Origin: a virus | Virus record (IMG/VR): IMGVR_UViG_3300015360_000024 | Span: 129,959-193,958 of that record | Reading direction: 5' to 3' (one strand) | Length of the DNA stretch: 64,000 bases | Part shown: piece by piece, positions 12,423 through 61,424 of the stretch | How positions within the stretch are numbered: the stretch's first letter is position 1 | How the letters are laid out: each line of letters starts with the position of its first letter | Notes under the pieces: generated by a model | Told to the model about the DNA's origin: nothing | What the model saw: the letters and a program-made list of their open reading frames with translations, nothing else | Database searches by the model: none | Translations under genes and position numbers: made by a program

Positions 12423-15086
12423 GTGATTCGAGTAACGATCAAAAATACAGGCAGCGTGCAGATCGTGCCTGGTGGGCATCCCGCGCTGCCTCCTCCGTTT
12501 CACCTGGTCGCATTGTGGCCGGGTGAAATGGAGGAGTCGATCTGCACTATGGAACAGGTGCAGGCTGAGTGGCCTCATAATTCAGGTTTTAAGGTGCTGG
12601 ATCTGTTGAGGCAGCTGGTTCAGCAGAGTGTGATTCGAGTTGACATTCGTCCATATCAGGAGAATTCTCCGGCGGTTCCTGCAATAGCACGGGCAAGCGA
12701 GATCCTGACGCCTCCGCCGCCGGCACCTCCTAAGCCAGAGACCGTCGCTCAGGTGTTTAGAATGGCACCGCCCACCGTTGAAGATGACCCAGATGAAGAC
12801 GAGGACGAGCCCATGAGCAACAAGGACGACCTGCCTGATTTCGTTGATCCGCTCTATAACGCGCCGACGACCAAGAAGGCTAAACCTGCGCCTGTTGAGG
12901 AGGTTGTGCCAGCAAGGCCCGCTCCCGTACAGAGTCCCACTGCAATCGACATCCCAGACCCAACTGTGGCTGCGTATCGTGGCAAGAAGAAGGAATCCAG
13001 GAAGGACGCCTTCGACTCTGCAGTGCAGATGGCGTTCGTGGGCGCTGGCCAGGGAGGCGGTCGGATTGCCCAGTCGTTCTACGACATGGGCTACAGGCGC
13101 GTCTGCGCGGTCAACACGACCCAGCAGGACTTGTCGTCGCTGACTATCGCCGACCAGCTTGTTATCGGCAGGAACCGTGGCGGCGCCGGCAAGGACCCGG
13201 AACAGGGCAAGCTTGCTGCCAAGGAGTCGTACGAGGAGATCATGGACCTCCTTAACCGCTCATGGGGTGAAGGCGTCGAGCAGATGTTCGTCTGCGTCGG
13301 AGCTGGTGGCGGAAGCGGTACTGGCAGCTGGCCGGTCCTCGTCAAGGCGATGCGCGAGTTTGGTGAGAGCACAAACATCGAGAAGCCCATCGAGAAGCAC
13401 CTCGGCATCATCATGACGATGCCCAAGCGGTCCGAGGGCTCACGGGTTCAGCAGAACGCGCTGACGGCACTCAAGCAGGCTGTCGAGCTGGTTGAGGAGA
13501 AGAAGATCAGCACGCTTGTCATTGTCGACAACGCGAAGATCCACGACCTGTACCCCGGTCTGCCGGTGAAGCAGTTCTGGACGGTGGCCAATCAGAACTT
13601 TGCTGCCATCCTGCATACATTCAACATCCTCGCGGCCAAGGATTCGCAGTACAACTGCGTTGACGCAGATACTGAAGCATTGACCAAACGCGGCTGGGTC
13701 AGAGGGTTTGATCTTGATCCACGAGACGTGCTTCTGACTAAGAATGCAGAGACCGGCGAACTTGAGTGGCAGGCTCTGACGGATCTCAAGCTCTGGCCAG
13801 ATTACGAAGGGCCACTCGTAGAGTTGAAAAATAGAACGTTCAGTGCCGTGACGACGCCAGACCATCGCTGGTTAGTAACCGAGTCCTATGGTGGCGAAGA
13901 CGTTTGCAAGCTGACCAGCGAGTTGTCGTTGACCGGCCACGATCGTATTCATCGGTCTGGCACTTATCGTGGTCCAGATACCTCTATATGGACCGATGAT
14001 TTCGTTGAGTTGATGGGGTGGTTTTTGACGGATGGAACTTGTACCGTTACGCCTGAGTGCGAGGTCAAGAAGCAAAAGAACAGAACGTATGCAGGGCCTC
14101 GTGTAAGTGTTCAGATCTATCAAAGTGAGAGGGCTAACCCAGGGAAGGTTTCCCGTATAGATTCGCTATTACAGCGAATTGGGTGCCAGGCCCACAGGGG
14201 ATTTTACGACAGAGATCAGCGTGTAACATGGCGACTTGACCGATCTACGTCAGAGATTTTGAACGCTCTGTTCCCAGAGAAGGTTCTAACTCCTGAGGTT
14301 GCAGCCCAGCTGACAGCGTCACAGGCGAAGAGACTTCTTGAATCTATGATGCTTGGAGACGGTAATCTTGCTGGGACTGATGAGCGACAGCAGGTATTTA
14401 CTTCTGGCTCCGAAGCCGGGATTGAGGCATTTCAAATGCTCTGCACTTTATGTGGATTTGCCAGCACTTCGCGATGGCGTGATATGTCTGGATACACGCC
14501 TGTGTCTGACAAGATGCCAAACATTCCAAAGATGAGCGGCGTTTGGGCTTCGACCATTCTTCGGAGGCCGACCGTACAGCTTCAGAAGGAACATAAGAGA
14601 GAGTTCAACGCAAAACAGGGCGTCTGGTGCCCTGTTGTTCCCAATACGTACTTCGTGGCACGCCGTGAAGGAACGGTTTACGTTACTGGCAACACGTTCG
14701 ACCGGGCTGACTATCGGTCGGTGCTCCGCAACGGCATTATGATCTTCGGCATGACACGAGTCGAGGAGTGGGTGAACAAGGAAGACGTCTCGGTGGCCAT
14801 CCGCCAGAACCTCGCCGGGTCACTTCTGGCTGATGGGTTCGATCTCAGCAAGGCGAACATGGCTGGCGCAATCGTCGTGGCTCACGACAATGTGCTTGAA
14901 GAGGTGCCAATGGAGAACATCGACTACGCCTTCCATAGCCTCGGACGCGCGCTTGGCAACGATGGGATCACGCTCCACAGCGGCATCTACGAATGGAACA
15001 AGCCGGGCATGATGGTTTTCACAATCGTCTCCGGCCTTCAGCCGCCGCAGTCGAGATTTGACGAGCTGGAGAAGCTCTCAACCTGA
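12423..15086 (+). CDS. FtsZ/tubulin-family GTPase precursor containing an intein
   Basis: FVGAGQGGGRIA, AVNT, GAGKDPEQG, GAGGGSGTG signature, MPKRSEG and VDNAKI follow the FtsZ/tubulin motif order. Spliced length would be 541 aa. Confidence 0.9.
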   Translation: MIRVTIKNTGSVQIVPGGHPALPPPFHLVALWPGEMEESICTMEQVQAEWPHNSGFKVLDLLRQLVQQSVIRVDIRPYQENSPAVPAIARASEILTPPPPAPPKPETVAQVFRMAPPTVEDDPDEDEDEPMSNKDDLPDFVDPLYNAPTTKKAKPAPVEEVVPARPAPVQSPTAIDIPDPTVAAYRGKKKESRKDAFDSAVQMAFVGAGQGGGRIAQSFYDMGYRRVCAVNTTQQDLSSLTIADQLVIGRNRGGAGKDPEQGKLAAKESYEEIMDLLNRSWGEGVEQMFVCVGAGGGSGTGSWPVLVKAMREFGESTNIEKPIEKHLGIIMTMPKRSEGSRVQQNALTALKQAVELVEEKKISTLVIVDNAKIHDLYPGLPVKQFWTVANQNFAAILHTFNILAAKDSQYNCVDADTEALTKRGWVRGFDLDPRDVLLTKNAETGELEWQALTDLKLWPDYEGPLVELKNRTFSAVTTPDHRWLVTESYGGEDVCKLTSELSLTGHDRIHRSGTYRGPDTSIWTDDFVELMGWFLTDGTCTVTPECEVKKQKNRTYAGPRVSVQIYQSERANPGKVSRIDSLLQRIGCQAHRGFYDRDQRVTWRLDRSTSEILNALFPEKVLTPEVAAQLTASQAKRLLESMMLGDGNLAGTDERQQVFTSGSEAGIEAFQMLCTLCGFASTSRWRDMSGYTPVSDKMPNIPKMSGVWASTILRRPTVQLQKEHKREFNAKQGVWCPVVPNTYFVARREGTVYVTGNTFDRADYRSVLRNGIMIFGMTRVEEWVNKEDVSVAIRQNLAGSLLADGFDLSKANMAGAIVVAHDNVLEEVPMENIDYAFHSLGRALGNDGITLHSGIYEWNKPGMMVFTIVSGLQPPQSRFDELEKLST
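13656..14693 (+). mobile_element. Intein with LAGLIDADG homing endonuclease (346 aa) in the tubulin gene
   Basis: Starts CVDADTEALTKRGW; block B TTPDHRW; LAGLIDADG-like LMGWFLTDG and LESMMLGDG; ends VYVTGN followed by Thr(+1). Confidence 0.9.
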
Positions 15087-15840: not shown

Positions 15841-16671
15841 GTGCCTGCAGTCTCCCAGGAAGAGGCTGTGCGTTTTCGCCTGATGTACGACGCTCGTATG
15901 TCGATGAAGCAGATCAGCGAACAAACCGGGCGTGGTCTGGAAACCATCTGGCGTCACCTCAGGGCGTCTGGAGCGACTCGAACGCTGGAAGCTGGTTGGG
16001 CGATGGCGATGGATGAAGGTCGCGTCCCGGCCCCTCCGGTGAACCGTAGACATACATTCGACCAGCGCTTTTTCGAGGTCGTAGACTCCTCGGAGAAGGC
16101 GTGGGTTCTCGGGTTGATGTTCGGCGACGGTAACGTTCGTTCTAGTGGCCGTGTGTTGCTGGCGTGTGGCAAGGACAAGGATGTCGCTCGCAAGGTCGCG
16201 GATCTGTTTTCTTACAGCGGTCCGCTGGTCTTTAAGTCGAGCTGTTGGATGCTGGAGGTTGGCTCTGTTGCGATGGTAAGGGATCTTGCCGCACTTGGTG
16301 TGGTTCCAGCTAAGACGTATACGATGAAGTTCCCATCGCTACCTGACGGTCTGTTGCCGCATTTCGTGCGCGGCCTCTGGGAGAGCGACGGAACCATGTC
16401 GCGCTTGAAGACTGGCGGCCTGTATATGAAATATGTCAGCGCCAGCAGATGCTTTGTGGTTTCACTGCGCGACTTGCTTATCGACACGGTTAATGTGGTG
16501 GCCAAGGTTCAAGACCCGAGAGGACTTGATAGGCGTGGCGTTCCAGATCGCACATCTGTCATATCGTATGGCTCATCAAGTGCTGAGCGGTTGAGCGAGT
16601 GGGTGTACGGTTCATCTACTAAGCAGATGCGTTGTGATAGAAAATGGCACATTCATCGAGGTGATGTATGA
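15841..16671 (+). CDS. Free-standing LAGLIDADG homing endonuclease with N-terminal HTH
   Basis: AWVLGLMFGDG and HFVRGLWESDG motifs; N-terminal SMKQISEQTGRGLETIWRHL HTH; AAGGAG RBS. Confidence 0.85.
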   Translation: MPAVSQEEAVRFRLMYDARMSMKQISEQTGRGLETIWRHLRASGATRTLEAGWAMAMDEGRVPAPPVNRRHTFDQRFFEVVDSSEKAWVLGLMFGDGNVRSSGRVLLACGKDKDVARKVADLFSYSGPLVFKSSCWMLEVGSVAMVRDLAALGVVPAKTYTMKFPSLPDGLLPHFVRGLWESDGTMSRLKTGGLYMKYVSASRCFVVSLRDLLIDTVNVVAKVQDPRGLDRRGVPDRTSVISYGSSSAERLSEWVYGSSTKQMRCDRKWHIHRGDV

Positions 16672-20574: not shown

Positions 20575-22506
20575 ATGCCGCCAATCACGCTGAGCCCGAT
20601 CTCCAACGCCACCGTAAAGGTGCGATGGAAGGAGCCGTACGCCTCGGAAGGCCTAAACCGCAAGATGGCGGTCGTGGTTCCGGCTGGTGTGTATCGCGGC
20701 CTGAAGCTTGGGGTGAGCGCCAGCAATCTATCTGTCGATTTGCTCCCTGACGCAGTCGGGGATCACGTCGCCGTTCAGGAGAGTTCCGACGGATTCCAGA
20801 CGACGTATGTGGATGACACGTCTGGTACGATCACCCTGCCGCTGACGGGGTTCGCCACCAACGACGTGGTTGTGATCTGCCTGGTTATTGGTTACGCGGT
20901 CGGCGCTACAACGACGGCTGAGTTCCGTGGTTATGTGCTGGCTGACTACGATGCGCTATCGGATGCAGCCAAGAGCGACCTGGTGGTGCTCGGAACGGTT
21001 CTTCGTCCAGCAGCCGGCATTATTCCGGCGGTCAACATCACGCACGATCGTCGGACCTTGCCGTTTCTTCGTCGCACCGATGAAGCCACGCCATGGAACC
21101 CGCTGGTTCGTAACGGCGGGTTCGAGCTTGGCGCTACGAATGCGACCAATGCCGGCGCATCGCCATTCTGGACTACGTACGCCTCGAACGCGAACTTCAC
21201 GATTCGTCCGGTGACGACCGAGTCTCACTCGGGCGCCAAGAGCCTGGAGATGACTGCGTCGGGTGCTGGCGCGGTGACGGCTACGATCTGGCAAGACCTG
21301 TTCATACCAGTGACGCCTGGCCGCTTCATGATGGGTCGCTTGTTCAAGAAGGTAATCCAGACAGCGACGCTATCGAGCGGCAGGATTCGGTTCACGTTCG
21401 GAGATCAGGACGGCATCAACGACGTCAACGAAGATCTGCTATTCGATGTGTCTGCTATTGATGGATCATTCGAAGAGTTCTCTGGGATCATTAAAGTCCC
21501 TACGACTGCGCGCGTGCTCAAGGGTGTGTTCATTGTCATCGCTGGCACATATGCTGGCACCGGCCCGTGTATCCGAATTGACGATGCCCAGGCTTGGATG
21601 CAGGTTGATGCAGCCAACTGGATGGATGTCCTCGATGCTCGCGCTGGCGAGGGTGCGTTCGGAAGGCTGCTCCTTGGTACTGCGAATAGCTTTTCGACTA
21701 GTGGCGCGAAGCTGTCGAACCCCGGAAACCTTGTTGAGGTAGAGCGATCTGACTCAAACCTCCTGGTCCTCCCTCCGGCTATCTCGATTCCGGCTCGCGC
21801 TTCAGTGAGCCTCAAGTACACGTTGGTCTTTCAGAGCCTGCCGCCGGGAAATCCTGGTTATAGAAAGTACGTGTCCCGGGTTGGGCACTTGCTCGAAGTC
21901 GTGAACGCATCCTACGACTCGACGACGGATACATGGACGAAGGATGTCGCTGGCGTCAACGCGCTCAGAAGCGAAGTGGCGGCTAGCGGAGTCCTTGTTT
22001 ACGAACGTATTTCTGATGTTGCCTGGTTGGATTCCGCCTGGGCTGCTCAGTACACCGTTGGAACGTCGCCTCTATTCACGCAGTCGATCAGGCACGGCGA
22101 CCGCCCGCTTCAGCTGGGGTCGAACTGGTTTCAGTACGATACGACCTCAGGTGGAGAAGATTTCGTTTTCAGGGATGGTGGCTTCATCCAGATCATGGCC
22201 GCGACGACGATTTGGATCGAGCTGCCGTTGATAGTTGGCGATAGAGTGAAGTCGTTCACGATTCAGGTCAGCGGAAACGGTGCGTCTGATATCTCTGCGA
22301 TTAGGTTTCAGCGTGCCGGTCTAGGCAGCACGTTAGCTGAGCTGACGACGGCGCTTAACAATCCTGGCGCCGGTTGGGCCAGCTATCCGTTCGCGCTGCC
22401 AGGTGGCGAGACATTGCTGGCTAATGAATCGTTCGTGATCGAGTTTGTCATCACTGGGACGATGCAGCTTGCAACTACAACGGTGATCTATGATCACCCA
22501 GTCTGA
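20575..22506 (+). CDS. Tail fibre / receptor-binding protein paralogue 1
   Basis: Shared N-terminus KVRWKEPYASEGLNRK..GVYRGL and VRNGGFE carbohydrate-binding-module-like domain. Confidence 0.65.
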   Translation: MPPITLSPISNATVKVRWKEPYASEGLNRKMAVVVPAGVYRGLKLGVSASNLSVDLLPDAVGDHVAVQESSDGFQTTYVDDTSGTITLPLTGFATNDVVVICLVIGYAVGATTTAEFRGYVLADYDALSDAAKSDLVVLGTVLRPAAGIIPAVNITHDRRTLPFLRRTDEATPWNPLVRNGGFELGATNATNAGASPFWTTYASNANFTIRPVTTESHSGAKSLEMTASGAGAVTATIWQDLFIPVTPGRFMMGRLFKKVIQTATLSSGRIRFTFGDQDGINDVNEDLLFDVSAIDGSFEEFSGIIKVPTTARVLKGVFIVIAGTYAGTGPCIRIDDAQAWMQVDAANWMDVLDARAGEGAFGRLLLGTANSFSTSGAKLSNPGNLVEVERSDSNLLVLPPAISIPARASVSLKYTLVFQSLPPGNPGYRKYVSRVGHLLEVVNASYDSTTDTWTKDVAGVNALRSEVAASGVLVYERISDVAWLDSAWAAQYTVGTSPLFTQSIRHGDRPLQLGSNWFQYDTTSGGEDFVFRDGGFIQIMAATTIWIELPLIVGDRVKSFTIQVSGNGASDISAIRFQRAGLGSTLAELTTALNNPGAGWASYPFALPGGETLLANESFVIEFVITGTMQLATTTVIYDHPV

Positions 22507-22518
22507 TGGAGATAGAAA

Positions 22519-25020
22519 ATGCCCCCGGTAACCATCTCGGCGATTGTTGATCTCTCGAAGGTCAAGATGAAGTGGAAGGAGACGTATGTCTCCGAGGGGC
22601 TTAACCGCAAGGTGATCCCTGCGATGCCGAAGGGTATCTACAGCGGCCTCAGGCTGATTCAGAACATCTCGTCACCACGTCAGGTTGAGGTGTCTGCTGC
22701 GCCTGACGTAACGCATGCTGCTGTCCACCAGAGCGCGACTGGATACTCCACGACATATCACGACGTTGCTGGTGTTTCTACGATACTTGATCTGAGCAAC
22801 GCGGCGCTAAACAACCAGGAGACGGTCATCGCGCTGTCGATCACCTATGTGATCGGTGCTGATACGACGGCTAGCTGGATTGCCTATCCGATTGCTGATT
22901 GGAACGCGCTGACCGACGCGCAGAGGGCTGAGCGGATCGTCCTTGGGACGGTAAGCGTTCCAGCTCCGGCCACGAACATTACGACAGCGATGATCACTCC
23001 GAATCGTCGCACGGCGGCTTGGGAGAGTGAGTCGCCTGGCTCGGTGCCATGGTCTCCAATCGTTAAGAATCCAAGCTTCGAACATGGTGGTACAGGTTCC
23101 AGCGGCTCCGGTCAGTATCTGATCTCTGACTGGCGCAATCGGGTCGACTTGGACGTCAACGGGCGCTTTGAGTTAGGCGTGGCCACTGTTCGTTCTGGTG
23201 CCAAAAGCTTGGCCTTCAACAAGACAATTGTTGGAGCGAGTACTGGAAAGATCGAGCAGTACCAAGAGGTTCCCGTTACCCCTGGGCAGCTGGTTCGCGT
23301 GACGGGTTGGATTAGGCAGCTCATCGCCCCGACGGGCGGGTCATATACATTCAACGTCTACTGGGGCGATCTGGACAGCCTTGCCTCGGGGAGTCTTACC
23401 ATCACCGCATCGGCGGCTGGCCTTGACGCCGCATTCCGTAAGGTTGAGTCGACGTTCAAGGTGCCGGCGGGTAAATTCGTTATCAAGACGGTCACGATCG
23501 AAGTTGTCGGTGTGACGTCTGCATCAACCGGCGTTGCCGCCGTCTTCGATGATTTTCAGGTGTTTATTGAGACCGGCTCACCGCTTACGCGGCAGGCAGC
23601 TCTCGCAAACAGCTTGCGCCAGCAAATGGTAAGCGCGCTGTTCTTCGAGGATCCTTCAACATACGCAGCCAATGGACAGCTATCAGCTCTTCTGCGTTAC
23701 GACAAGTCGACGCCAGTCGGCGAAGGGTCTCTCATCGGTCAGCGCAAAGACCTCGCAGACAATTCGGCGCAGCCAGCGCTCTCATGGATGGGGCGTATCA
23801 TCGACCTCGGCAAGTTCATGTTGTTCGGCTCCGCCGAGTCAAACCAGCCTCGCATCGAGGGACCGTTTTCATCGAATGAGCCGTTCACCCTAATGTTTGA
23901 GACCAGACGCGAAGGACCAGCTGGCAAGGGGCTGCGCTTGTACGCTGGGTATCTGTTCGGTGGCTCCACGGAACCTGGCTTCTTCTTGACGGTTAACGCA
24001 AAGCATGACGGGACGAACTGGACGAGGGACGTTAACGGCGAAGGTTCGTCTGGTGTGTATATTGACGCTGACGAGAATCGCGGCAATATTGTATCCAGCA
24101 ATGGTGCACCGTGTTTGACGACTTATGTTCACAGGGCAGCTGATCCTAATACATGGACCACATGGCAGGAGGCCGTTTCCCTTATGGGGCTAAACGATCC
24201 AGAGGGAGGATCTGCTCTCCAGACGTCACAGATCTTGATCCCTCGCTATTTTGATCAGACCAAGCCTGTTATTGTCATTAGCGGTGCGCCGGAGCCTAGA
24301 GGCCCTGTTCTACAGGGAGATGGGGATTCTATTCTGGTCGGCGGAATCGACCACGCTGGAATTTATTTCTACCCGGATTCCAGAGTGGTTCACGAGGACT
24401 TCGATGACTCGACGCTCGGCTACTACCTGCGCCAAGACATTGTTAATGTTGGCAGCACGACCCTCAGTCCAGCTAACAGCAGGGCTACGCTAGTCACAAA
24501 CGCAGCCAGCGGTAGCATCAGCGTATTTCGTCCAAACGTCGCCTATCAGAACTGGGGTTCCAATGGCGGGCTGTTCAGGCTAGGTTTCCGCGCCAGGATT
24601 GCCATCGGCGGTATCACCAATACCGAGCAGTACATTGGGTACTGGTGCCCTGGCCAGGGCAACCCGGACAACAACGCCGCATTGGCTATGGCGTTCAAGA
24701 TTGTGAACGGTGTCGTGTCAGTGATTGCCGATGGTGGTGCGGCGACAGCTTCTACCGGAGTCACAGTTGGCGTCGGTCAAATTCGCTGGTTCACCCTGGT
24801 CTTCGATCCGACCAACGGAGTGGTCCAGTGGCATATAACGGGCTCTGGTGGAACCATTGCCAGTGGTATGGTCGGCGGGACTTATGGGACTCTCGCAGCC
24901 TCCGCAGAGGCCGGTGATCCAAACTATCCATTTATCGGTGTGAAGACGACAACTGCGGCAACGTCTTCGATTACGGCTGACTGTTTGACCGCCTGGATGG
25001 GCGACAGAGAGGGAATGTAA
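22519..25020 (+). CDS. Tail fibre / receptor-binding protein paralogue 2
   Basis: KMKWKETYVSEGLNRK..GIYSGL and VKNPSFE; divergent C-terminus; GGAG RBS. Confidence 0.65.
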   Translation: MPPVTISAIVDLSKVKMKWKETYVSEGLNRKVIPAMPKGIYSGLRLIQNISSPRQVEVSAAPDVTHAAVHQSATGYSTTYHDVAGVSTILDLSNAALNNQETVIALSITYVIGADTTASWIAYPIADWNALTDAQRAERIVLGTVSVPAPATNITTAMITPNRRTAAWESESPGSVPWSPIVKNPSFEHGGTGSSGSGQYLISDWRNRVDLDVNGRFELGVATVRSGAKSLAFNKTIVGASTGKIEQYQEVPVTPGQLVRVTGWIRQLIAPTGGSYTFNVYWGDLDSLASGSLTITASAAGLDAAFRKVESTFKVPAGKFVIKTVTIEVVGVTSASTGVAAVFDDFQVFIETGSPLTRQAALANSLRQQMVSALFFEDPSTYAANGQLSALLRYDKSTPVGEGSLIGQRKDLADNSAQPALSWMGRIIDLGKFMLFGSAESNQPRIEGPFSSNEPFTLMFETRREGPAGKGLRLYAGYLFGGSTEPGFFLTVNAKHDGTNWTRDVNGEGSSGVYIDADENRGNIVSSNGAPCLTTYVHRAADPNTWTTWQEAVSLMGLNDPEGGSALQTSQILIPRYFDQTKPVIVISGAPEPRGPVLQGDGDSILVGGIDHAGIYFYPDSRVVHEDFDDSTLGYYLRQDIVNVGSTTLSPANSRATLVTNAASGSISVFRPNVAYQNWGSNGGLFRLGFRARIAIGGITNTEQYIGYWCPGQGNPDNNAALAMAFKIVNGVVSVIADGGAATASTGVTVGVGQIRWFTLVFDPTNGVVQWHITGSGGTIASGMVGGTYGTLAASAEAGDPNYPFIGVKTTTAATSSITADCLTAWMGDREGM

Positions 25021-25287
25021 ATGATGGAGAACAAGATGAACGAGAAGACGATTAACAACATCCCGGTTTCCGAGGAGACCTTCAACAAGATGATCCTTCT
25101 GCAGGAGAGGTCTCGGCGGATCAATGCTGAGGCTGCTATCCTTCAGCGCGAGAAGGTCGATACCGAGGCAGCGGTTGCTGCGCTCATGGCCGAGATCGAA
25201 AAGAGCGCTCCTACCAAGGAGGGTAACGGCCTGGCACAGCAGATTTCTGCTGTCGCTCCGGCTGCGCAGCAGACCCCGACCGCATAG
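25021..25287 (+). CDS. Small coiled-coil protein, possible fibre chaperone
   Basis: Starts directly after the fibre stop; GAGGG RBS; helical. Confidence 0.55.
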   Translation: MMENKMNEKTINNIPVSEETFNKMILLQERSRRINAEAAILQREKVDTEAAVAALMAEIEKSAPTKEGNGLAQQISAVAPAAQQTPTA

Positions 25288-25296
25288 GTGATTTGA

Positions 25297-27894
25297 ATGC
25301 CCACGGACATCCTCGCGCTGCCATCGAGCAGCCTCAACACGAAGTGGAAGGAGCCGTATGCCTCGGCGAGCCTCAACCGGAGGTCCGTTGGCATCACTGC
25401 GCCGGGAATCTATCGTGGTTTGAGATTGCAGCCGGATCCGTCCCTGGGCGACAGGACAATTCAGGTCGAGGCTGACCCGGATAAGCTTGATCACGTAGCC
25501 GTTTACGAGAACGACAGCGGATTCTCGGTGACGTATCGGGACAGCACGTCAGGTGACATCATCCTGTCGCTGGCTGGATACGCCAGCGTTAATGTCGTCG
25601 TTTGTATTTTCGTGGACTATCAGACCGGCGTCTCCACGACTGGCGCCTTTCGGATCTTCACGGAGGCCGAGTTCAGCGCACTGCCTTTGGCTGTCAGTAA
25701 CGCGTTGGTGATCATTGGGACTGTGACGGTTCCGGTGTCCGGTGCCATCTCGGCATCGAATATATCGCTCCTGCGTCGCACGCTTGCGTCATCGAATCTG
25801 TCACGCGGAACGATCCCCAACGCTCCGTTGGTTCGTAATCCTGGGTTCGAGTCCGGCGAGACCAATGCGACATACGCCAAATCGAGCTTGTTCTGGGACA
25901 AGTCGATGACGGTCGGCACGGGAACATGGAAGACCAGTACGGCGCAGGTCTCGACGGGCATGAAGTCCATCGAGATGAACGTGACAGCTGGACCTGTTAC
26001 TGGAGAGATTTCTCAGCAGGTTGGTGTCGAGACGGCGGAGGGTGAGCTGTTCTTGATTGCCGTTACGATCAAGCAGCTGAAGACGATCTCCTCTGGAAGT
26101 TTGGTCTTCTTTTTGGAGTGGTCTGACGTCAACGACGCCTTGCTGACCACGACAACCATTGGCCTCGACGGTGGCGGAATCGACTCGTCGTTTAGGACGG
26201 TGGAGACAATCATTCCGGCACCGGCTGGTGCGTCTTCGTTGCGTTCTGTTGGTATTCGGGCAACGGGCTTCAGCCCGGCAAGCACTGGGATTTTTGGGTA
26301 CGTAGATAACGTCGATGTATTCGTTGAGCCGAGAGATCCACGGTACCCGTACGCATTCGACCAAACGTTCCGTAGAGCGGTGGCCGCGACTGCTGTTTCG
26401 CTTCTGGACAGGACGGGGAATTTCGCAAGTCAGATCGCGTCCCTTCGGTTTGATCCAACAACACCGTCAGGCGAAGGTCGCGCGCTATTTGAGCCAGGCA
26501 ATCCGGCTAATATTCCACCAGCGCTTGCAGTGCTTGGTAGGCTGTACAAGCTCGGATCTAGTCTCCTTGGGACTGAGGCGAATGCGCTGAAGCCGCGCGT
26601 CAGCGCCGACGTGAGCGTTGCGGTTGGTACCGAGTACACGCTCATGTGGGAGTCGGTTCGCGACGGGGAGTCTCCTGGTGGCTACACCCAGGCGGTTGCT
26701 CGTATCTATGGCGCTCCGGCTGGGCAGTGGACGCTAACAGTGAATGCTGCGTTCGACGGGACCAACTGGATCAAGGATGTCAACGGTCAAGTTGCGTACA
26801 GGACGACATTAGCGCGAGATCAATTCGTCATCTCTACCCAGATCGGAGGCACCAACACGTGGCTCGATGCGGCTTGGGTGAAGGTGTCGGAGGCGCTTCC
26901 TGGGGCGGTCAATCTGCTGCTTGGTACAGGTTCGAACCAGTTCGTGTTCACACCGACGCAGCTCACGCACGATGCAGATATCGTCCCAGCAATCACTGGC
27001 ACGTTTAGCGTTGGTTCTGCGGCCGTACAGCTCGACAAGATGTGGACGCGGCGCATTGGGCTTGGAGCCGATGGGACTGGCGCGGCTCCAGCGAACACCC
27101 CGCTTGGTCGATCACTGTCGATCATCGGAAGTCATGCTCCGTATCAGGGCGAGTACATCAGCAAGCGGTTCGGGATATGGGGCCGTAAGGGCCTGCGTTT
27201 TGTCGATGACTTCTTCAGCGAGACGACGGTTCCCGATGGATGGAACTCTGGCTCGATTGGTGCCGGCGCCTCGATTGTTCGTGATGGATCAATACCTCAT
27301 ACCCTCAACGCTGTTCATACCGGAGCTGCGAATGGGACAGCGTATATCTATACGGCCAACAGCTTTCGTTTGACGGATGGCTTCGTGGCTCGTTGGAGAT
27401 TGGTATGGAACAACGGCGGCACGATTGGAACTACTGGAGCTGTTGGGTTTGGTGATCCGATCGGCGGTACGAACGGCATGTCGTTTCATGCCATCGTTGA
27501 CAACGTAACCTCTGGTGGTCCGTACTTCGGGACTGGATTCCGTTATGGCGGGACGCTCGATGCGACATTCAAACAGCCGGCGGGCGGAACGTTGATTGAT
27601 ATCGACGCCGTTACTGGATCCGGAGAAGGCGCATTCGGCAGTAACACGCTAATGCGTTGGTACACTCTCGCCGTTGTTAGTGGTGTGGCCTATTGGGAGG
27701 TCTACACGACCGAGCCAGACGGCGAGATCAATGACGACAGCTTCCTGACCGCGATCGGAAATACTGGGGCCATCACGGTTCCGTCGGGCCTCTATCCGTT
27801 TTACGTGAGCGCTCCTGGTGTCAGCGGCCTTGGCGGAACCACAATGAAACTGGATTACTTCGAAGTGATCACCGGAGGTCGCGATGGCGGTTAA
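25297..27894 (+). CDS. Tail fibre / receptor-binding protein paralogue 3
   Basis: NTKWKEPYASASLNRR..GIYRGL and VRNPGFE; divergent C-terminus. Confidence 0.65.
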   Translation: MPTDILALPSSSLNTKWKEPYASASLNRRSVGITAPGIYRGLRLQPDPSLGDRTIQVEADPDKLDHVAVYENDSGFSVTYRDSTSGDIILSLAGYASVNVVVCIFVDYQTGVSTTGAFRIFTEAEFSALPLAVSNALVIIGTVTVPVSGAISASNISLLRRTLASSNLSRGTIPNAPLVRNPGFESGETNATYAKSSLFWDKSMTVGTGTWKTSTAQVSTGMKSIEMNVTAGPVTGEISQQVGVETAEGELFLIAVTIKQLKTISSGSLVFFLEWSDVNDALLTTTTIGLDGGGIDSSFRTVETIIPAPAGASSLRSVGIRATGFSPASTGIFGYVDNVDVFVEPRDPRYPYAFDQTFRRAVAATAVSLLDRTGNFASQIASLRFDPTTPSGEGRALFEPGNPANIPPALAVLGRLYKLGSSLLGTEANALKPRVSADVSVAVGTEYTLMWESVRDGESPGGYTQAVARIYGAPAGQWTLTVNAAFDGTNWIKDVNGQVAYRTTLARDQFVISTQIGGTNTWLDAAWVKVSEALPGAVNLLLGTGSNQFVFTPTQLTHDADIVPAITGTFSVGSAAVQLDKMWTRRIGLGADGTGAAPANTPLGRSLSIIGSHAPYQGEYISKRFGIWGRKGLRFVDDFFSETTVPDGWNSGSIGAGASIVRDGSIPHTLNAVHTGAANGTAYIYTANSFRLTDGFVARWRLVWNNGGTIGTTGAVGFGDPIGGTNGMSFHAIVDNVTSGGPYFGTGFRYGGTLDATFKQPAGGTLIDIDAVTGSGEGAFGSNTLMRWYTLAVVSGVAYWEVYTTEPDGEINDDSFLTAIGNTGAITVPSGLYPFYVSAPGVSGLGGTTMKLDYFEVITGGRDGG

Positions 27895-43410: not shown

Positions 43411-43527
43411 TCCCGGAACTTGTTCGCTAAATTTTTTCAGCAATAGTCGCGGCAAACGACAAACGCTTTCGGGCCCATAACGGGCCCGTCCTTGTCCGAG
43501 GGATCGGACCGAAAAGGAAGCAGCCAG

Positions 43528-45165
43528 ATGACGACCCATTACTCAGATCACGTCAACGAGAAGAAGACCCCGCAGAACCAGAAGGCCAAGGCCGGACAGG
43601 TTCTCAACCAGGCCGGTGGTTTCGTGTTCGCTGTGGACCAGTGGGTCCAGCTGGACCGATTCCTGATCCTCGGCACCGAGGGTGGCACCTACTACGCCTC
43701 CGAGAAGGAGTCGACGGTCAAGGCCGCCGCATGTGTGGAGAAGTGCATCGCCACGGACGGTCTAAAGACTGTTGCTCGCGTCCTTGAGATCAGCGACGGT
43801 GGCCGTGCGCCCAAGAACGATCCGGCACTGCTGGTTCTGGCGATGTGCGCCAAGAAGGGCGACGACGCCACCAAGGCCGCAGCTCGCGCCGCGCTGCCGA
43901 AGGTCGCGCGTATCGGCACGCACCTGTTCACGCTCGCTCAGAACATCGAGGCGTTCGGTGGCTGGGGTCGTTCGACCAAGCGTGCGTTCGCGGACTGGTA
44001 CCAGACGAAGACCCTGTCCTCGGCTGCGTTCCAGGCTGTGAAGTACCAGTCGCGTAACGGCTGGTCGCACCGGGACATCCTGCGTCTAGCGCACCCGAAG
44101 CCGAAGGACGATGGCTTCAAGGCGCTCTTCAAGTGGATCACCAAGGGTGAGCTGGAGGATGTCGCCATCGAAGGCCTGGAGATCGTCAAGGCGTTCGAGG
44201 TCGCGAAGAAGACCAAGGACAAGAAGGAAATCGTTGCGCTGATCAAGGCTCACGGCCTGCAGCGTGAAATGATTCCGACCGAGTTCCTGTCGGAGCCGGA
44301 CGTCTGGGAGGCAATGCTTCCGTCGATGGGCGTCACTGCACTCGTGCGCAACCTGGCGAACATGACGCGTATCGGGCTTCTGAAGCCGATGTCGTCTGCA
44401 ACCAAGTCCGTTATCGCCTCGCTGGAGGACGCGGAGAAGCTGCAGAAGGCGCGTCTGCACCCGATCGCTGTTCTGTCGGCCCTGCTGACGTACAAGTCGG
44501 GCGGCGGTGGTCTGTACTCGAAGTCCCAGCACACCTGGACTCCGCTGACCTCCATCGTCGACGCACTCGATGCAGCGTTCTATAAGACCTTCAAGGCGGT
44601 CGAGCCAGCTGGTAAGCGCACGCTTCTGGCTCTCGACGTCTCGGGCTCGATGGACGGCGGCGTCATCGCGGGCGTGCAGGGTCTAACCCCGCGTATGGGT
44701 TCCTGCGCCATGTCACTCATCACGGCGGCGACCGAGAAGGACCACCACTTCATCGGCTTCACGTCGGGTAGCGGTGGCTGGGGCCGGCCGAAGAGCGGCA
44801 GCGACGACGGCATCACGCAGATCGACATCTCGCCGAAGATGCGTCTGGACCAGGTTGTTCAGAAGGTCAGCGCCCTCCCCATGGGAGGCACGGACTGCGC
44901 TGCGCCGATGGTCTGGGCTCAGAAGCACAAGATCGAGGTCGACACCTTCTGCGTCTACACGGACAGTGAGACGTGGGCTGGCACCATCCAGCCGTTCCAG
45001 GCACTGAAGGAGTACCGCCAGAAGATGGGCATCGGCGCAAAGCTGGTGGTCATCGGAATGACCTCTACGGAGTTCACGATCGCTGACCCGAGCGACGCAG
45101 GTATGATGGACGTCGTTGGATTCGACACGGCAGCCCCGGGTCTGATCAACGACTTCTCTCGGTAA
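43528..45165 (+). CDS. rsr: Ro60/TROVE-domain RNA-binding protein (Rsr-like)
   Basis: NQAGGFVF..LDRFLILGTEGGTYY, GWGRS, KYQSRNGWSHRDILRLAHP, and vWA DVSGSM..GGTDCA..YTDSETW. Confidence 0.95.
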   Translation: MTTHYSDHVNEKKTPQNQKAKAGQVLNQAGGFVFAVDQWVQLDRFLILGTEGGTYYASEKESTVKAAACVEKCIATDGLKTVARVLEISDGGRAPKNDPALLVLAMCAKKGDDATKAAARAALPKVARIGTHLFTLAQNIEAFGGWGRSTKRAFADWYQTKTLSSAAFQAVKYQSRNGWSHRDILRLAHPKPKDDGFKALFKWITKGELEDVAIEGLEIVKAFEVAKKTKDKKEIVALIKAHGLQREMIPTEFLSEPDVWEAMLPSMGVTALVRNLANMTRIGLLKPMSSATKSVIASLEDAEKLQKARLHPIAVLSALLTYKSGGGGLYSKSQHTWTPLTSIVDALDAAFYKTFKAVEPAGKRTLLALDVSGSMDGGVIAGVQGLTPRMGSCAMSLITAATEKDHHFIGFTSGSGGWGRPKSGSDDGITQIDISPKMRLDQVVQKVSALPMGGTDCAAPMVWAQKHKIEVDTFCVYTDSETWAGTIQPFQALKEYRQKMGIGAKLVVIGMTSTEFTIADPSDAGMMDVVGFDTAAPGLINDFSR

Positions 45166-58073: not shown

Positions 58074-58250
58074 TTATTTTGATGGGTCATAATCGAAACC
58101 CCTATCCAAGCACACATCTCTGATGTCGTCAAAGTCCCTTGTGAATTCTTCGTTTCTGCCCTCGAATGGAATCTGTCGTGTACGGAGACTTTCGATCAGC
58201 TTCCAGACCAGCCAATATTGCCTTTTGCTAAGTTGTTTCTTGTTGTTCAT
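58074..58250 (-). CDS. 58-aa hypothetical protein not in the ORF track
   Basis: MNNKKQLSKRQYWLVWKLIESLRTRQIPFEGRNEEFTRDFDDIRDVCLDRGFDYDPSK fills the SNF2-infC gap. Confidence 0.55.
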   Translation of the reverse strand: MNNKKQLSKRQYWLVWKLIESLRTRQIPFEGRNEEFTRDFDDIRDVCLDRGFDYDPSK

Positions 58251-61032
58251 CTTTGTTTGGTCTCAGTTGGATGATATTTGCGAGGTTCGTGGGCTCTTTG
58301 ATTTCTAGGCCACGCTGACGGAGGAATGACTCGGCGAGCTTCCTGACGTCGTGGTCGCTGGCTTGTCCTGCTTCAATCAGGTCGGCGTTCGGGTCGCGGA
58401 TACCCTGCATCTGGGAGCGCTTCTCGCCGAGGGTGTCTGACATGACCGGATCGCTGCCGTAGTCCGACAGGAGGAAGTACGCCATCACGGGGTCGGTCTG
58501 ACCGTCGCGATGGACGCGGCCGATGCACTGGTCATGAACACCTGGGCTCCAGTCCAGCTCGCCGAAGACGACGGTCCGGCAGACGTGCTGAAGGCCGTCG
58601 AGTCCTGCGCCGGCACGGAGGGACATCATCAAGATCTTCGACTCGCCATTGAGAAATCGTTGGACGGCCGCAGCCTTCTGATTGCTCGATTCGCTGCCCG
58701 TGTACATCACGGGTCCCAAGTCGGCGAGCTTCGCGTTGAGGATGCTGTAGACCTCTCGGTGCCACGCGTAGAGTAGGACCGGCTCCTCGGCCTCCGCGAG
58801 CATACGGACGAAGTCGGCGACGTAGGGAGCCTTGGCGATGCCCGTGGCCTGACGGACGATGTTCGACAGCTCCTCGGCAGCCTGCATCTTGACGCCCTTC
58901 TTGAGGGAGTTCTGAGACAGGATGATCTTTGCCAGCTCTGCTGCCGAATCCTCGATGTTGCTGAGGGCTTCCGGGTCCGCCTCGATAGCCTGTGGGATCT
59001 TGGTGAGGGGCTCCAGCTCGCGACCGACTTCGCTACGGGTGCGGCGAATCATGATGCCCTGCTCGCGCAGGTACGAGCCGAAGGCCTTGGGGTCGCGGAT
59101 CTTCGGGCGGTCAGACATGTACGAGTCACACCACTCGCGCATGAACTCGTCCTTCTCGCCCAGGCATCCTGGGTCGATGGCGCTGACGACGCTATAGATC
59201 TCTCCGCCGTAGTTGTAGATTGGCGTTGCTGATAGGCCGATCTTTAGCGTGGCCGCTTCGGAGATGTGAATAGCGCCAGCGTATTTGAGAGACTCAGAGC
59301 GGCGCAGCTCCTGAACCTCGTCATAGACGACGGTCTTTACGATCCCTGCGAGCGTCTCGGCCCAGCCGGTTAGCTTATGGTAGTTTATGAGAATTACGTC
59401 AGGAAATAGAACCTTCTCGCCGTTCTTGCCCTTACAGATATCGTAGGGCGTTCCCTTTTTGATGACGTGGGTGCGTAGCTTCGGCGCGAATTTCTCGACC
59501 TCCCGCTGCCACTGTTTTGGCAGGTGGGCGAGGGTCACGACAAGCGCAGGTAGATTCGCTGGGTCGGTGAACGTGCAGATGGCCTGAGCGGTATTGTGAG
59601 TTAGGATGGCGTGCTCTGTGGCGTACAGGCTGTCTTGCGCTGCCACTTTGATGCAAACGGATTCGCAATGGCGAGTGTATTCAATTGATTCGATGCTTCT
59701 TGTAGGATGCGTCCGGTTGGTTAGCTTGTATCTGAATGATTTACGCCCTGTTGTGAAAGGCGCAAGATAATGCGGCAGCCGCAGGCTGACGACGTATTCC
59801 GTTGGCTTATCCTCGGAGCGCCTGTCGTACGTGTGAATCGTCGCTGAGCATCCGAGACATTCGGCTAGATTCTGGAAGTCGCTAGCGAGTGTTATGCTGG
59901 TCGTGCAGTAGGCGACCTTGTTGCCGGTTTTGGAAATGGTTCCATCGCAGTCCATGAGGCCATGGAACAGATCGATCCTGTTTTCTACCCTGGAATGAAG
60001 ATATGTTTCTGGAATGAATTTCTGATTACTGACGACGTTTAGTTTCATATCCCGAAGGATCTTCGAGACTCCAGGTATTCCGATATGAACGGAGCCTTTA
60101 TCGCGCCTTATCGCGCCGATTTCGATACGTTTTGCTGCTAATGCGACCATGAAGTCATCGTGGTCTGATTTGTTTATTGTGATTCTTGGCGTGTGCTTGG
60201 TGTCGCCGTTTGCGATCAGGCATCCAAACAAATAAGGGTCGATCGGTAGTTTCGCATCGCTGACGGCGAATCTTGCAGGCCACGATAGCGTTGGAATAAA
60301 CAGCGTAGGCTTTGATAGGTCCAACCAAGAGACCTGCCCGCTCGCTCTTGTCTGTTTGATTTTCTGACTAGTTCTAATCTGATCGGACGTGACTACGATT
60401 GAATCCAGTTTGCGTCCGCCTTTCCAATACATGACGGTCCAGAGATGGTCCGGCCCGCATTCGACGGAAGAGTGGTCGCTGAATTTAATGCGGTAGCATG
60501 GCCTATTGCCCTGGGGAAACACTCCGGTCACCATGGTGGGTTCGCCAGTTGAGCCAGTGACCATATCGCCGACCTTCAGCGATCCGATTTCTCTATATCC
60601 GTATGGGGTAAGAACTTTTGCATCTACTGGCTGCTGTTTGCCGAGTCCAACGTCGTCGGCGATTAGCAGTCGGCCGGTCTTCATGGCCAGGTCGGCTGAG
60701 ATTCTCTGGTAGTCGCGTGGCTGAACTGCCAGCTCGAATACAGGAGCCGTGTAGTCACCGCCGAGAATCTGCCCGACCAGAAGCTCGGTCTCCAGGTGCT
60801 CGACGGTCAGCTCGTCAAGTCGCTCCTTGTCAACGGCCTCCATGGTCATCGGGTACCGCTTGAGGAACCATTCAAGCTCGCGCGTATTCTCCGGTGTGGC
60901 CGACAGCGTCAGCTTGCCGTACTGGTTCTTCTTGATCTTCTGGAAGACGCGTTTGATACGCAGGGCAACCTGTGGTTCTGTTTCAATGATCCACTGGCGC
61001 CCATTGAGCGTGACGGTTCCATACAGTCTCAC
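58228..61032 (-). CDS. SNF2-family SF2 helicase precursor with an intein
   Basis: IADDVGLGK|T, YDEVQ, LSATPIYN, MSLRAGAGLDGLQ, ELDWSP..QCIGRVHRDGQ; GTG 61032 forms a GTGA overlap. Confidence 0.92.
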   Translation of the reverse strand: MRLYGTVTLNGRQWIIETEPQVALRIKRVFQKIKKNQYGKLTLSATPENTRELEWFLKRYPMTMEAVDKERLDELTVEHLETELLVGQILGGDYTAPVFELAVQPRDYQRISADLAMKTGRLLIADDVGLGKQQPVDAKVLTPYGYREIGSLKVGDMVTGSTGEPTMVTGVFPQGNRPCYRIKFSDHSSVECGPDHLWTVMYWKGGRKLDSIVVTSDQIRTSQKIKQTRASGQVSWLDLSKPTLFIPTLSWPARFAVSDAKLPIDPYLFGCLIANGDTKHTPRITINKSDHDDFMVALAAKRIEIGAIRRDKGSVHIGIPGVSKILRDMKLNVVSNQKFIPETYLHSRVENRIDLFHGLMDCDGTISKTGNKVAYCTTSITLASDFQNLAECLGCSATIHTYDRRSEDKPTEYVVSLRLPHYLAPFTTGRKSFRYKLTNRTHPTRSIESIEYTRHCESVCIKVAAQDSLYATEHAILTHNTAQAICTFTDPANLPALVVTLAHLPKQWQREVEKFAPKLRTHVIKKGTPYDICKGKNGEKVLFPDVILINYHKLTGWAETLAGIVKTVVYDEVQELRRSESLKYAGAIHISEAATLKIGLSATPIYNYGGEIYSVVSAIDPGCLGEKDEFMREWCDSYMSDRPKIRDPKAFGSYLREQGIMIRRTRSEVGRELEPLTKIPQAIEADPEALSNIEDSAAELAKIILSQNSLKKGVKMQAAEELSNIVRQATGIAKAPYVADFVRMLAEAEEPVLLYAWHREVYSILNAKLADLGPVMYTGSESSNQKAAAVQRFLNGESKILMMSLRAGAGLDGLQHVCRTVVFGELDWSPGVHDQCIGRVHRDGQTDPVMAYFLLSDYGSDPVMSDTLGEKRSQMQGIRDPNADLIEAGQASDHDVRKLAESFLRQRGLEIKEPTNLANIIQLRPNKDEQQETT
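59593..60636 (-). mobile_element. Class-3-type intein with LAGLIDADG endonuclease (348 aa)
   Basis: Starts QQPVDAKVLTP, block B DHLW, block F SVCIKV, ends LTHN followed by Thr; LFGCLIANGD and FHGLMDCDG motifs. Confidence 0.88.
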
Positions 61033-61424
61033 AACAGGCTTCCGATGAGACTGTGGCAACGGATCGGCTTGTGGTTCATCTCTTCAGGCAGATTAGCCAA
61101 TCGCGCCTTCGAGGTCACCACTAAGATTCCGAGAATCGAGTCGTGCTGCGCGTACCGGAATAGCTGACGCGTCAGGTCCGATAGCGAGTGGTCGATCTTC
61201 GCCTCGATCCCGACCTTCTTCTCGGGGAAATAGAAGTCAACGATGTCCTCGTCCGAGAGGTGGTGCTCGGCAAAGAACTCCACTCCCAGGGCCGTGAACA
61301 CCTTACCCATGCCGCCCTGCAGATCCTTCTCGTTCGAGAAGTTGAACCTGTACCTGCTGAGGGTTTTGCTCAGGCTCTCGATCCACTCAATCGCGTCAAC
61401 CCGCGCGTGGGTGATATCGCTCAT
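61029..61424 (-). CDS. PD-(D/E)XK nuclease-like protein
   Basis: NEKDLQ..E..L...IVDF..VGIEAK..QL.RY; ATG 61424 forms an ATGA overlap. Confidence 0.65.
   Translation of the reverse strand: MSDITHARVDAIEWIESLSKTLSRYRFNFSNEKDLQGGMGKVFTALGVEFFAEHHLSDEDIVDFYFPEKKVGIEAKIDHSLSDLTRQLFRYAQHDSILGILVVTSKARLANLPEEMNHKPIRCHSLIGSLL

Follow-up and report, generated by a model that had tools for sequence, protein, structure and literature searches.

The DNA analyzed here (the window, 64,000 nucleotides) is the last 64 kb of IMG/VR record IMGVR_UViG_3300015360_000024, a 193,958-bp sequence from an uncultured large phage with an estimated completeness of 91%. The window carries a gene for a phage tubulin/FtsZ-like GTPase with an in-frame insert of 346 residues (residues 412-757, window positions 13656-14693 on the plus strand) that starts with CVDADTEAL, ends with VYVTGN and is followed by TFDRADYRSVL. 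A preliminary description, made from the letters alone, had proposed an intein in the catalytic T7 loop; the insert has the coordinates and sequence given there, and the reading frame is open over all 887 codons. The sequence comparisons described below make it highly probable that the segment is a full-length, apparently active intein, inserted at the T7 loop of the tubulin/FtsZ-like gene and belonging to a phage family marked by Cys1, TxxHRW, WC and a TGN end followed by Thr or Ser.

The interrupted protein has the hallmarks of the tubulin/FtsZ superfamily, namely the T1 (GxGxxG), T4 (GGGTG(S/T)G) and T7 (NxDxxD) motifs and the C-terminal domain, and its alignment with FtsZ of M. jannaschii (MjFtsZ) spans all of these motifs. 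The Pfam family Tubulin (PF00091) matches residues 204-377 (E-value 1e-15), and TubZ-like_C (PF22453) matches residues 758-873 in the C-extein, the part of the host protein that follows the insert. The TIGR00065 ftsZ equivalog profile was matched with an E-value of 2e-24, its 86.6 bits being below the curated cut-off of 295, and a PHROG of unknown function was matched only weakly. An AlphaFold2 model of P0012, an allele without the insert, has a predicted local distance difference test (pLDDT) score of 87 and was matched by Foldseek to TubZ, CetZ2 and FtsZ structures with E-values of ~1e-24 and target-normalised template modelling (TM) scores of 0.7-0.8 to TubZ/CetZ/FtsZ (PDB 2xka, 2xkb, 4b45, 1fsz). 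The window protein thus shares with TubZ, CetZ and FtsZ the predicted fold, the T1, T4 and T7 motifs and the TubZ-like C-terminal domain, but it is just 21-25% identical to them and is extended at the N-terminus by a further folded domain and a disordered linker (~195 residues). Judged from its sequence, it is a divergent phage paralogue, not FtsZ proper, within a clade whose members come from uncultured large phages. The N-terminal region consists of a conserved domain (residues 1-95, pLDDT > 90), a disordered acidic and proline-rich linker (about residues 110-185) and then a conserved DDLPDFVDPLYNAP motif; residues 1-195 have no match in Pfam, and the domain is missing from more distant family members.

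Close homologues were retrieved from 5.8 billion proteins, and 17 homologues were aligned. Nine further clusters of the same protein, 62-100% identical, bear the insert, and ~34 clusters of 500-550 residues are free of it. All short forms in the alignment read DS(Q/E)YN↓TFD(R/K)AD precisely where the long forms have C...TGN (the arrow marks the insertion point), and excision of C412-N757 in silico gives ...DSQYN↓TFDRAD..., which matches the natural intein-less alleles. In the GTPase core, the nearest of these and the window protein are less than 0.01 changes per site apart. Among five related IMG/VR contigs, the site is empty in four (TACAAC↓ACNTTCGAC) and occupied in one. The empty-site DNA at loci L003-L006 reads TACAAC↓ACGTTCGAC, and the synteny of intein-plus and intein-less phages was viewed on five IMG/VR loci. 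The ~34 clusters and the four empty viral contigs supply the intein-less alleles that the preliminary description had proposed to look for.

In FtsZ, the acidic residues of the T7 loop complete the GTPase site of the adjoining subunit. A HMMER alignment of P0012 with M. jannaschii FtsZ (1w5e/1fsz) pairs N411 with N233, D414 with D235 and D417 with D238; D414 and D417 of P0012 are D760 and D763 in the numbering of the window protein. In the AlphaFold2 model of P0012, the junction falls in the loop between helices 382-404 (H7) and 415-422 (H8). Because N411, D760 and D763 correspond to N233, D235 and D238 and the junction occupies the H7-H8 loop, the insertion site is assigned by alignment and model to the T7 loop, between Asn411 and Thr758. 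The proposal that excision restores the T7 synergy loop of a tubulin/FtsZ homologue is therefore borne out by the intein-less alleles, the MjFtsZ alignment and the P0012 model.

The insert itself has 54 homologous segments that align end to end over its residues 1-346 and lie inside phage DNA polymerase I, GGDEF, portal and terminase proteins. Twenty-one positions are invariant in all 54 of them: C1, T10, G13, W14, D24, W38, T67, H70, R71, W72, W122, Q156, D235, G267, W324, C325, R336, R337, T344, G345 and N346. The invariant positions coincide with intein blocks A, B (TxxH), F and G and with two LAGLIDADG motifs, the residues of the splicing blocks (C1, T67, H70, N346 and T+1) are all present, and the host residue at +1 is Thr or Ser without exception in the 54 homologues. 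A model of the intein built by AlphaFold2 from the 54-segment alignment (pLDDT 94, predicted TM score 0.91) has the predicted fold of a HINT domain with a LAGLIDADG endonuclease. Its best fold matches in the PDB are the intein homing endonucleases TliVMA (7qsu, 6e-15), PI-PfuI and PI-SceI, followed by the free LAGLIDADG enzyme I-DmoI, which matches the middle part of the intein.

A tblastn search of 50,697 phage genomes found relatives (25-33% identical) in 312 records, and in 263 of these the match covers 80% of the intein or more. Most of the 312 matches lie in methylase, portal and terminase (TerL) genes of mycobacteriophages and Gordonia phages. The 317-residue intein in the recombination directionality factor (RDF) phosphoesterase gp52 of phage Bethlehem aligns end to end with the T7-loop intein (E-value 2e-13) and reads C...VWC...TGN↓S. 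The Bethlehem RDF intein splices completely with its penultimate Gly, a Gly-to-His substitution slows its splicing, and its endonuclease is toxic in E. coli and hence active (Kelley et al., 2016, PMC5050341). The T7-loop intein and the Bethlehem RDF intein with its relatives have in common Cys1, the WC of block F, the TGN end, Ser or Thr at +1 and a nested LAGLIDADG endonuclease; they are phage-borne, occupy many insertion sites and are homologous over the full length. They differ in sequence (~25-33% identity) and in host, which in the window is a tubulin/FtsZ-like GTPase and not a nucleic-acid enzyme. All members of the subfamily to which the T7-loop intein belongs have Trp at B:12, which is missing from the Bethlehem RDF and Lilac copies. 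The nearest relatives outside tubulin (~50% identity) are found in family A DNA polymerases (P0048-P0087), all at the site xN↓TP(V/I)QG, and nearly all host sites of the close family have Asn at -1 and Thr or Ser at +1. A second copy of the T7-loop intein was looked for in the same phage genome and none was found. Based on the homologues in unrelated hosts, the invariant blocks, the predicted fold and the phage relatives, the description of the insert as an intein is upheld. Cys1, the Gly-Asn end and the W/C/T residues that had been pointed out were all found and are invariant in the 54 relatives; the end without a penultimate His is indeed present, but the Bethlehem RDF intein shows that it is not unusual in phage inteins (PMC5050341).

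The distribution and composition of the element were analyzed next to those of its host gene. The intein has a GC content of 51% and a third-position GC content (GC3) of 51%, compared with 58% and 70-78% in the exteins. In a maximum-likelihood tree built from only the exteins (45 rows), the distribution of the T7-loop intein requires at least 5 gains or losses over well-supported branches, and four intein-bearing alleles are each paired with an intein-less sister; thus, P0001 with the intein is sister to P0013 without it, at 0.003-0.006 changes per site. P0001 and P0004 have near-identical exteins on this tree and inteins that are just 76% identical, a contrast that points to separate invasions or recombination. 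A comparison of the window with contig L002, which bears the intein, gave 0.10-0.23 nonsynonymous (pN) and 0.67-0.94 synonymous (pS) differences per site, and these ranges hold alike for the two exteins, the two halves of the HINT domain and the endonuclease domain; the synonymous sites are saturated, so that a dN/dS ratio is not computable. As pN is far below the saturated pS, purifying selection appears to act on the exteins, the splicing domain and the endonuclease domain. The intein-bearing alleles retain all family-invariant extein residues, D760 and D763 included. The sporadic distribution, the foreign composition and the presence of the same element in pol I, portal, terminase, methylase and GGDEF genes characterize the intein, on sequence grounds, as mobile. 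These patterns are the signature of an active homing intein within a still-needed gene, in which protein splicing and DNA cleavage are the predicted activities. The boundaries, fold, family, T7 position, foreign composition, patchy distribution and purifying selection were established here, and we concluded that the element is a conventional selfish intein of a known phage intein family.

Other members of the phage tubulin family were surveyed by taking the intein-less allele as the query of a full HMMER scan over 1.84 billion representative proteins, which yielded 208 clusters at E <= 1e-30; the tubulin inteins were tallied from these representatives together with the 90%-identity clusters of the close-homologue search. 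Seven of the best 150 representatives are long proteins in which the match is split. Three further insertion sites (T1, T2 and T4) were found in proteins from metagenomes, the commonest being T4. The T4 signature is interrupted at GGG↓[ST]G in six proteins (P0047, P0106, P0121, P0168, P0187 and P0201) and the T1 loop at GQGG↓S in one (P0110), in each case by a Pfam-recognised intein ending in HN. In P0046, a tubulin with 37% identity, the T2 loop (AVN↓TT) is occupied by an intein of the TGN family found in the window. A shared endonuclease target for the T2 and T7 sites was considered and rejected as too weak, since they have only a 7-nt CAAC↓ACG core in common and 16 of 42 nucleotides identical. 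As judged from these sequences, the phage tubulin family hosts inteins at four nucleotide-contacting loops, T1, T2, T4 and T7.

Inteins are well known in nucleotide-binding loops of ATPases, such as the P-loops of DnaB, Snf2, TerL, RecA and VMA. The tubulin intein resembles them in that it occupies the best conserved and catalytically essential loop of its NTPase and differs in that its host in the window has the tubulin/FtsZ fold and is not a P-loop NTPase. The preliminary description knew of no intein in this family, and none was found in the literature searched. Full-text searches for inteins in FtsZ, tubulin, TubZ or PhuZ returned only inteins used as purification tags, or nothing, with InBase outside the scope of these searches. 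A tubulin/FtsZ intein is not mentioned in the main text of a survey of bacterial and archaeal inteins (Novikova, 2016, PMC4760082), in a mycobacteriophage survey, in reviews of jumbo phages or in a survey of the FtsZ/tubulin family (Santana-Molina, 2023, PMC9871819). Relative to this literature, both the host family and the insertion site are new.

Coordinates of the tubulin gene, its intein and other features in the window (residue numbers of intein motifs are counted from Cys1).
Feature	Position	Strand	Remarks
Precursor gene, phage tubulin/FtsZ-like GTPase with intein	12423..15086	+	887 residues; GTG start, homologues start MIRV at the same position
N-extein, residues 1-411	12423..13655	+	N-terminal domain, linker and GTPase domain through helix H7; last residue is T7-loop Asn411
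N-terminal region, residues 1-195	12423-13007	+	
T1 loop, GAGQGGG	13041-13061	+	in N-extein
T4 signature, GAGGGSGTGS	13299-13328	+	in N-extein
Intein, Cys1 to Asn346	13656..14693	+	346 residues; HINT splicing domain with nested LAGLIDADG endonuclease
Block A, Cys1	13656..13658	+	invariant; presumed first nucleophile
Block B, T67-P-D-H70-R-W72	13854..13871	+	TxxH and Trp at B:12; invariant
LAGLIDADG motif 1, FVELMGWFLTDGT	14001..14039	+	Asp126
LAGLIDADG motif 2, LLESMMLGDGN	14334..14366	+	Asp235 invariant
Block F, W324-C325	14625..14630	+	Cys at F:4; invariant; 21 residues ahead of terminal Asn
Block G, T344-G345-N346 (TGN)	14685..14693	+	invariant; without penultimate His
C-extein, residues 758-887	14694..15086	+	Thr+1, remaining T7 loop, TubZ-like C-terminal domain and stop codon
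T7-loop remainder	14694-14711	+	catalytic Asp760 and Asp763
LAGLIDADG homing endonuclease gene	15841-16671	+	free-standing
Three consecutive large ORFs	20575-27894	+	643, 833 and 865 residues
Ro60 homologue	43492-45165	+	
SNF2 helicase ORF	58231-61059	-	
Second intein	59593-60636	-	in SNF2 helicase ORF

Several other open reading frames (ORFs) of the window deserve mention. Downstream of the tubulin gene, at a distance of ~750 bp, lies the gene of a free-standing LAGLIDADG homing endonuclease with an N-terminal helix-turn-helix (PF14528, phrog_4645), flanked by small ORFs on one side and by the gene for a 1145-residue putative tail protein on the other. The three consecutive large ORFs have a common N-terminal module with a weak match to phrog_19162 (unknown function) and look like paralogous virion or fibre proteins. 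The phage also encodes a Ro60 protein with TROVE and vWA domains (E-value 2e-62).

According to the proposed mechanism, the gene would be translated as an 887-residue precursor in which the GTPase domain and H7 are parted from the catalytic Asp-x-x-Asp and the C-terminal domain, and the intein would excise itself by protein splicing. The likeliest route is that of standard class 1 inteins, in which an N-S acyl shift at Cys1 and transfer to Thr+1 would be followed by cyclisation of Asn346 without a penultimate His and by an O-N shift. The product would be a 541-residue protein reading YN-TFDRAD, practically the same as the natural intein-less alleles. Alleles with an empty site (TACAAC↓ACNTTCGAC) are the expected target of the nested LAGLIDADG endonuclease during co-infection, and the intein would be copied into them by homing. 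Splicing, the identity of the starting nucleophile and the endonuclease activity are inferred here; for splicing, the evidence is indirect and consists of the purifying selection and of a homologue, the Bethlehem RDF intein, that does splice (PMC5050341).

The starting nucleophile was weighed by comparison with class 3 inteins, with which the preliminary description had associated the W/C/T residues. These residues do form the Trp-Cys-Thr (WCT) triplet of that class (W72 at B:12, C325 at F:4 and T344 at G:5, all invariant), and the distance from C325 to the terminal Asn, 21 residues, equals the Cys320-Asn341 spacing of the Bethlehem TerL intein, which is the archetype of class 3 and was historically named 'MP-Be DnaB' (PMC2807308). 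The original definition of class 3, however, requires that there be no N-terminal Cys, Ser or Thr nucleophile (PMC2807308), and Cys1 is present in 54/54 members. BLAST detected no similarity between the T7-loop intein and the Bethlehem TerL intein (E-value 0.1), and by homology the former groups with the Cys1 'TGN' family (E-value 2e-13), not with the class 3 archetype. Compared with class 3 inteins (MP-Be DnaB/TerL, Dra Snf2 and Msm DnaB-1; PMC2807308, PMC5222942, PMC6195587), the T7-loop intein is alike in WCT, Thr+1, the Cys-Asn spacing and its association with phages, but it has an invariant Cys1, ends with TGN and not THN, and lies in the T7 loop of a GTPase instead of an ATPase P-loop. 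Cys1 'TGN' inteins, including Bethlehem RDF, were placed under class 1 by Kelley et al. (PMC5050341). In the literature searched, no Cys1 mutant of any member of this family was found. A class 1 start at Cys1 is most likely, because Cys1 is invariant, similarity to the archetype is undetectable, the TGN relatives are filed under class 1 and some of them have no Trp at B:12. The same phage has a second intein of 348 residues, located at the P-loop (GLGK↓T) of an SNF2 helicase. It starts with Gln, without an N-terminal nucleophile, has DHLW in block B, VCIKV in block F and LTHN↓T in block G, which is the full class 3 WCT signature, and shows homology along its entire length to the Bethlehem TerL intein, the class 3 archetype (E-value 6e-24). 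A relationship between the T7-loop intein and this SNF2 intein was rejected, as no similarity was detectable.

Three observations weigh against the favored explanation. The invariant Cys F:4 and Trp B:12 are class 3 hallmarks, so Cys1 may not be the sole or the initiating nucleophile; the class 1 placement of the Bethlehem RDF intein was apparently made from sequence and not from a Cys1 mutant (PMC5050341); and searches with the insert alone against Pfam, NCBIfam and PDB sequences did not recognise it, returning only chance anti-CRISPR matches (E-values around 0.1-1). Because these searches miss the insert, its assignment as an intein rests on homology, fold and motifs. In a class 3-like or dual-nucleophile route, Cys325, aided by Trp72 and Thr344, would attack the N-terminal junction to form a block-F branched thioester, with Cys1 redundant or auxiliary, and the family would be a present-day link between inteins of class 1 and class 3. 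Such a route would agree with the invariance of W72, C325 and T344 in the 54 members, even at 25-30% identity, with the archetypal Cys-Asn spacing, with the Thr or Ser at +1 that also typifies class 3 inteins (PMC5222942), and with the 3 of 37 WCT inteins in which Tori et al. already noted Ser1 or Cys1 (PMC2807308). We regard it as possible but doubtful: were Cys1 dispensable, its presence in every member would be unexpected, the archetype is matched at an E-value of only 0.1, against 6e-24 for the class 3 intein in the SNF2 gene of this phage, and the mycobacteriophage homologues Lilac and Bethlehem RDF have no Trp at B:12. In addition, the class 1 intein gp41-1 also has Thr at G:5, and grafting WCT onto it gave no class 3 splicing (PMC7664689). 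A combined proposal takes Cys1 and the class 3-type Cys F:4, with Trp B:12 and Thr G:5, as the mark of a large two-nucleophile phage family or of a Cys1-Cys325 redox latch; with either, splicing in the T7 loop would set the time during infection at which the phage tubulin cytoskeleton is activated. We consider this proposal unlikely.

Whether the intein serves its host gene was weighed separately. On structural grounds, an unspliced precursor should lack a normal T7 loop, and splicing would then have to precede normal filament GTPase activity. The preliminary description went further and suggested a conditional switch. In such a reading, the intein would be retained because, under the control of redox state, temperature or a ligand, it keeps the tubulin inactive until a given stage of infection, possibly through a Cys1-Cys325 disulfide. 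With its T7 loop split, the precursor should indeed fail to complete the inter-subunit GTPase site, the two invariant active-site cysteines are expected to be close together, and disulfides of catalytic cysteines confer redox sensitivity on other inteins (PMC4031507, PMC6195587); by analogy, redox control is conceivable as a speculation. The switch is nevertheless distinctly improbable, because near-identical alleles exist without the intein and its scatter over the extein tree calls for 5 or more gains or losses, which is a selfish homing pattern. The nested endonuclease is kept under purifying selection, the same intein family occupies many unrelated phage genes, and no feature specific to the tubulin copies was found. 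Selfish persistence is favored because gain and loss among near-identical alleles, the kept endonuclease and the many unrelated host genes all agree with it. There is, finally, only a very remote chance that the intein is dead and the tubulin gene in effect a pseudogene or a two-domain fusion. The failure of standard profile libraries to recognise the insert fits that idea, but all splicing residues are intact and invariant, the frame is open through 887 codons, the family-invariant extein residues are retained, D760 and D763 included, and exteins and intein alike show a strong synonymous excess.

In published surveys, inteins reside almost entirely in enzymes of replication, repair and nucleotide metabolism, mostly P-loop ATPases. 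The tubulin/FtsZ-type GTPases of large uncultured phages have also been invaded, and repeatedly, so that the rule of intein insertion at conserved catalytic loops now covers a second NTPase fold. The near-identical intein-plus and intein-less alleles form a natural matched pair for asking whether an intein delays the assembly of a cytoskeletal filament, and a large phage family that retains both class 1 and class 3 nucleophiles offers a convenient subject for the origin of class 3 splicing.

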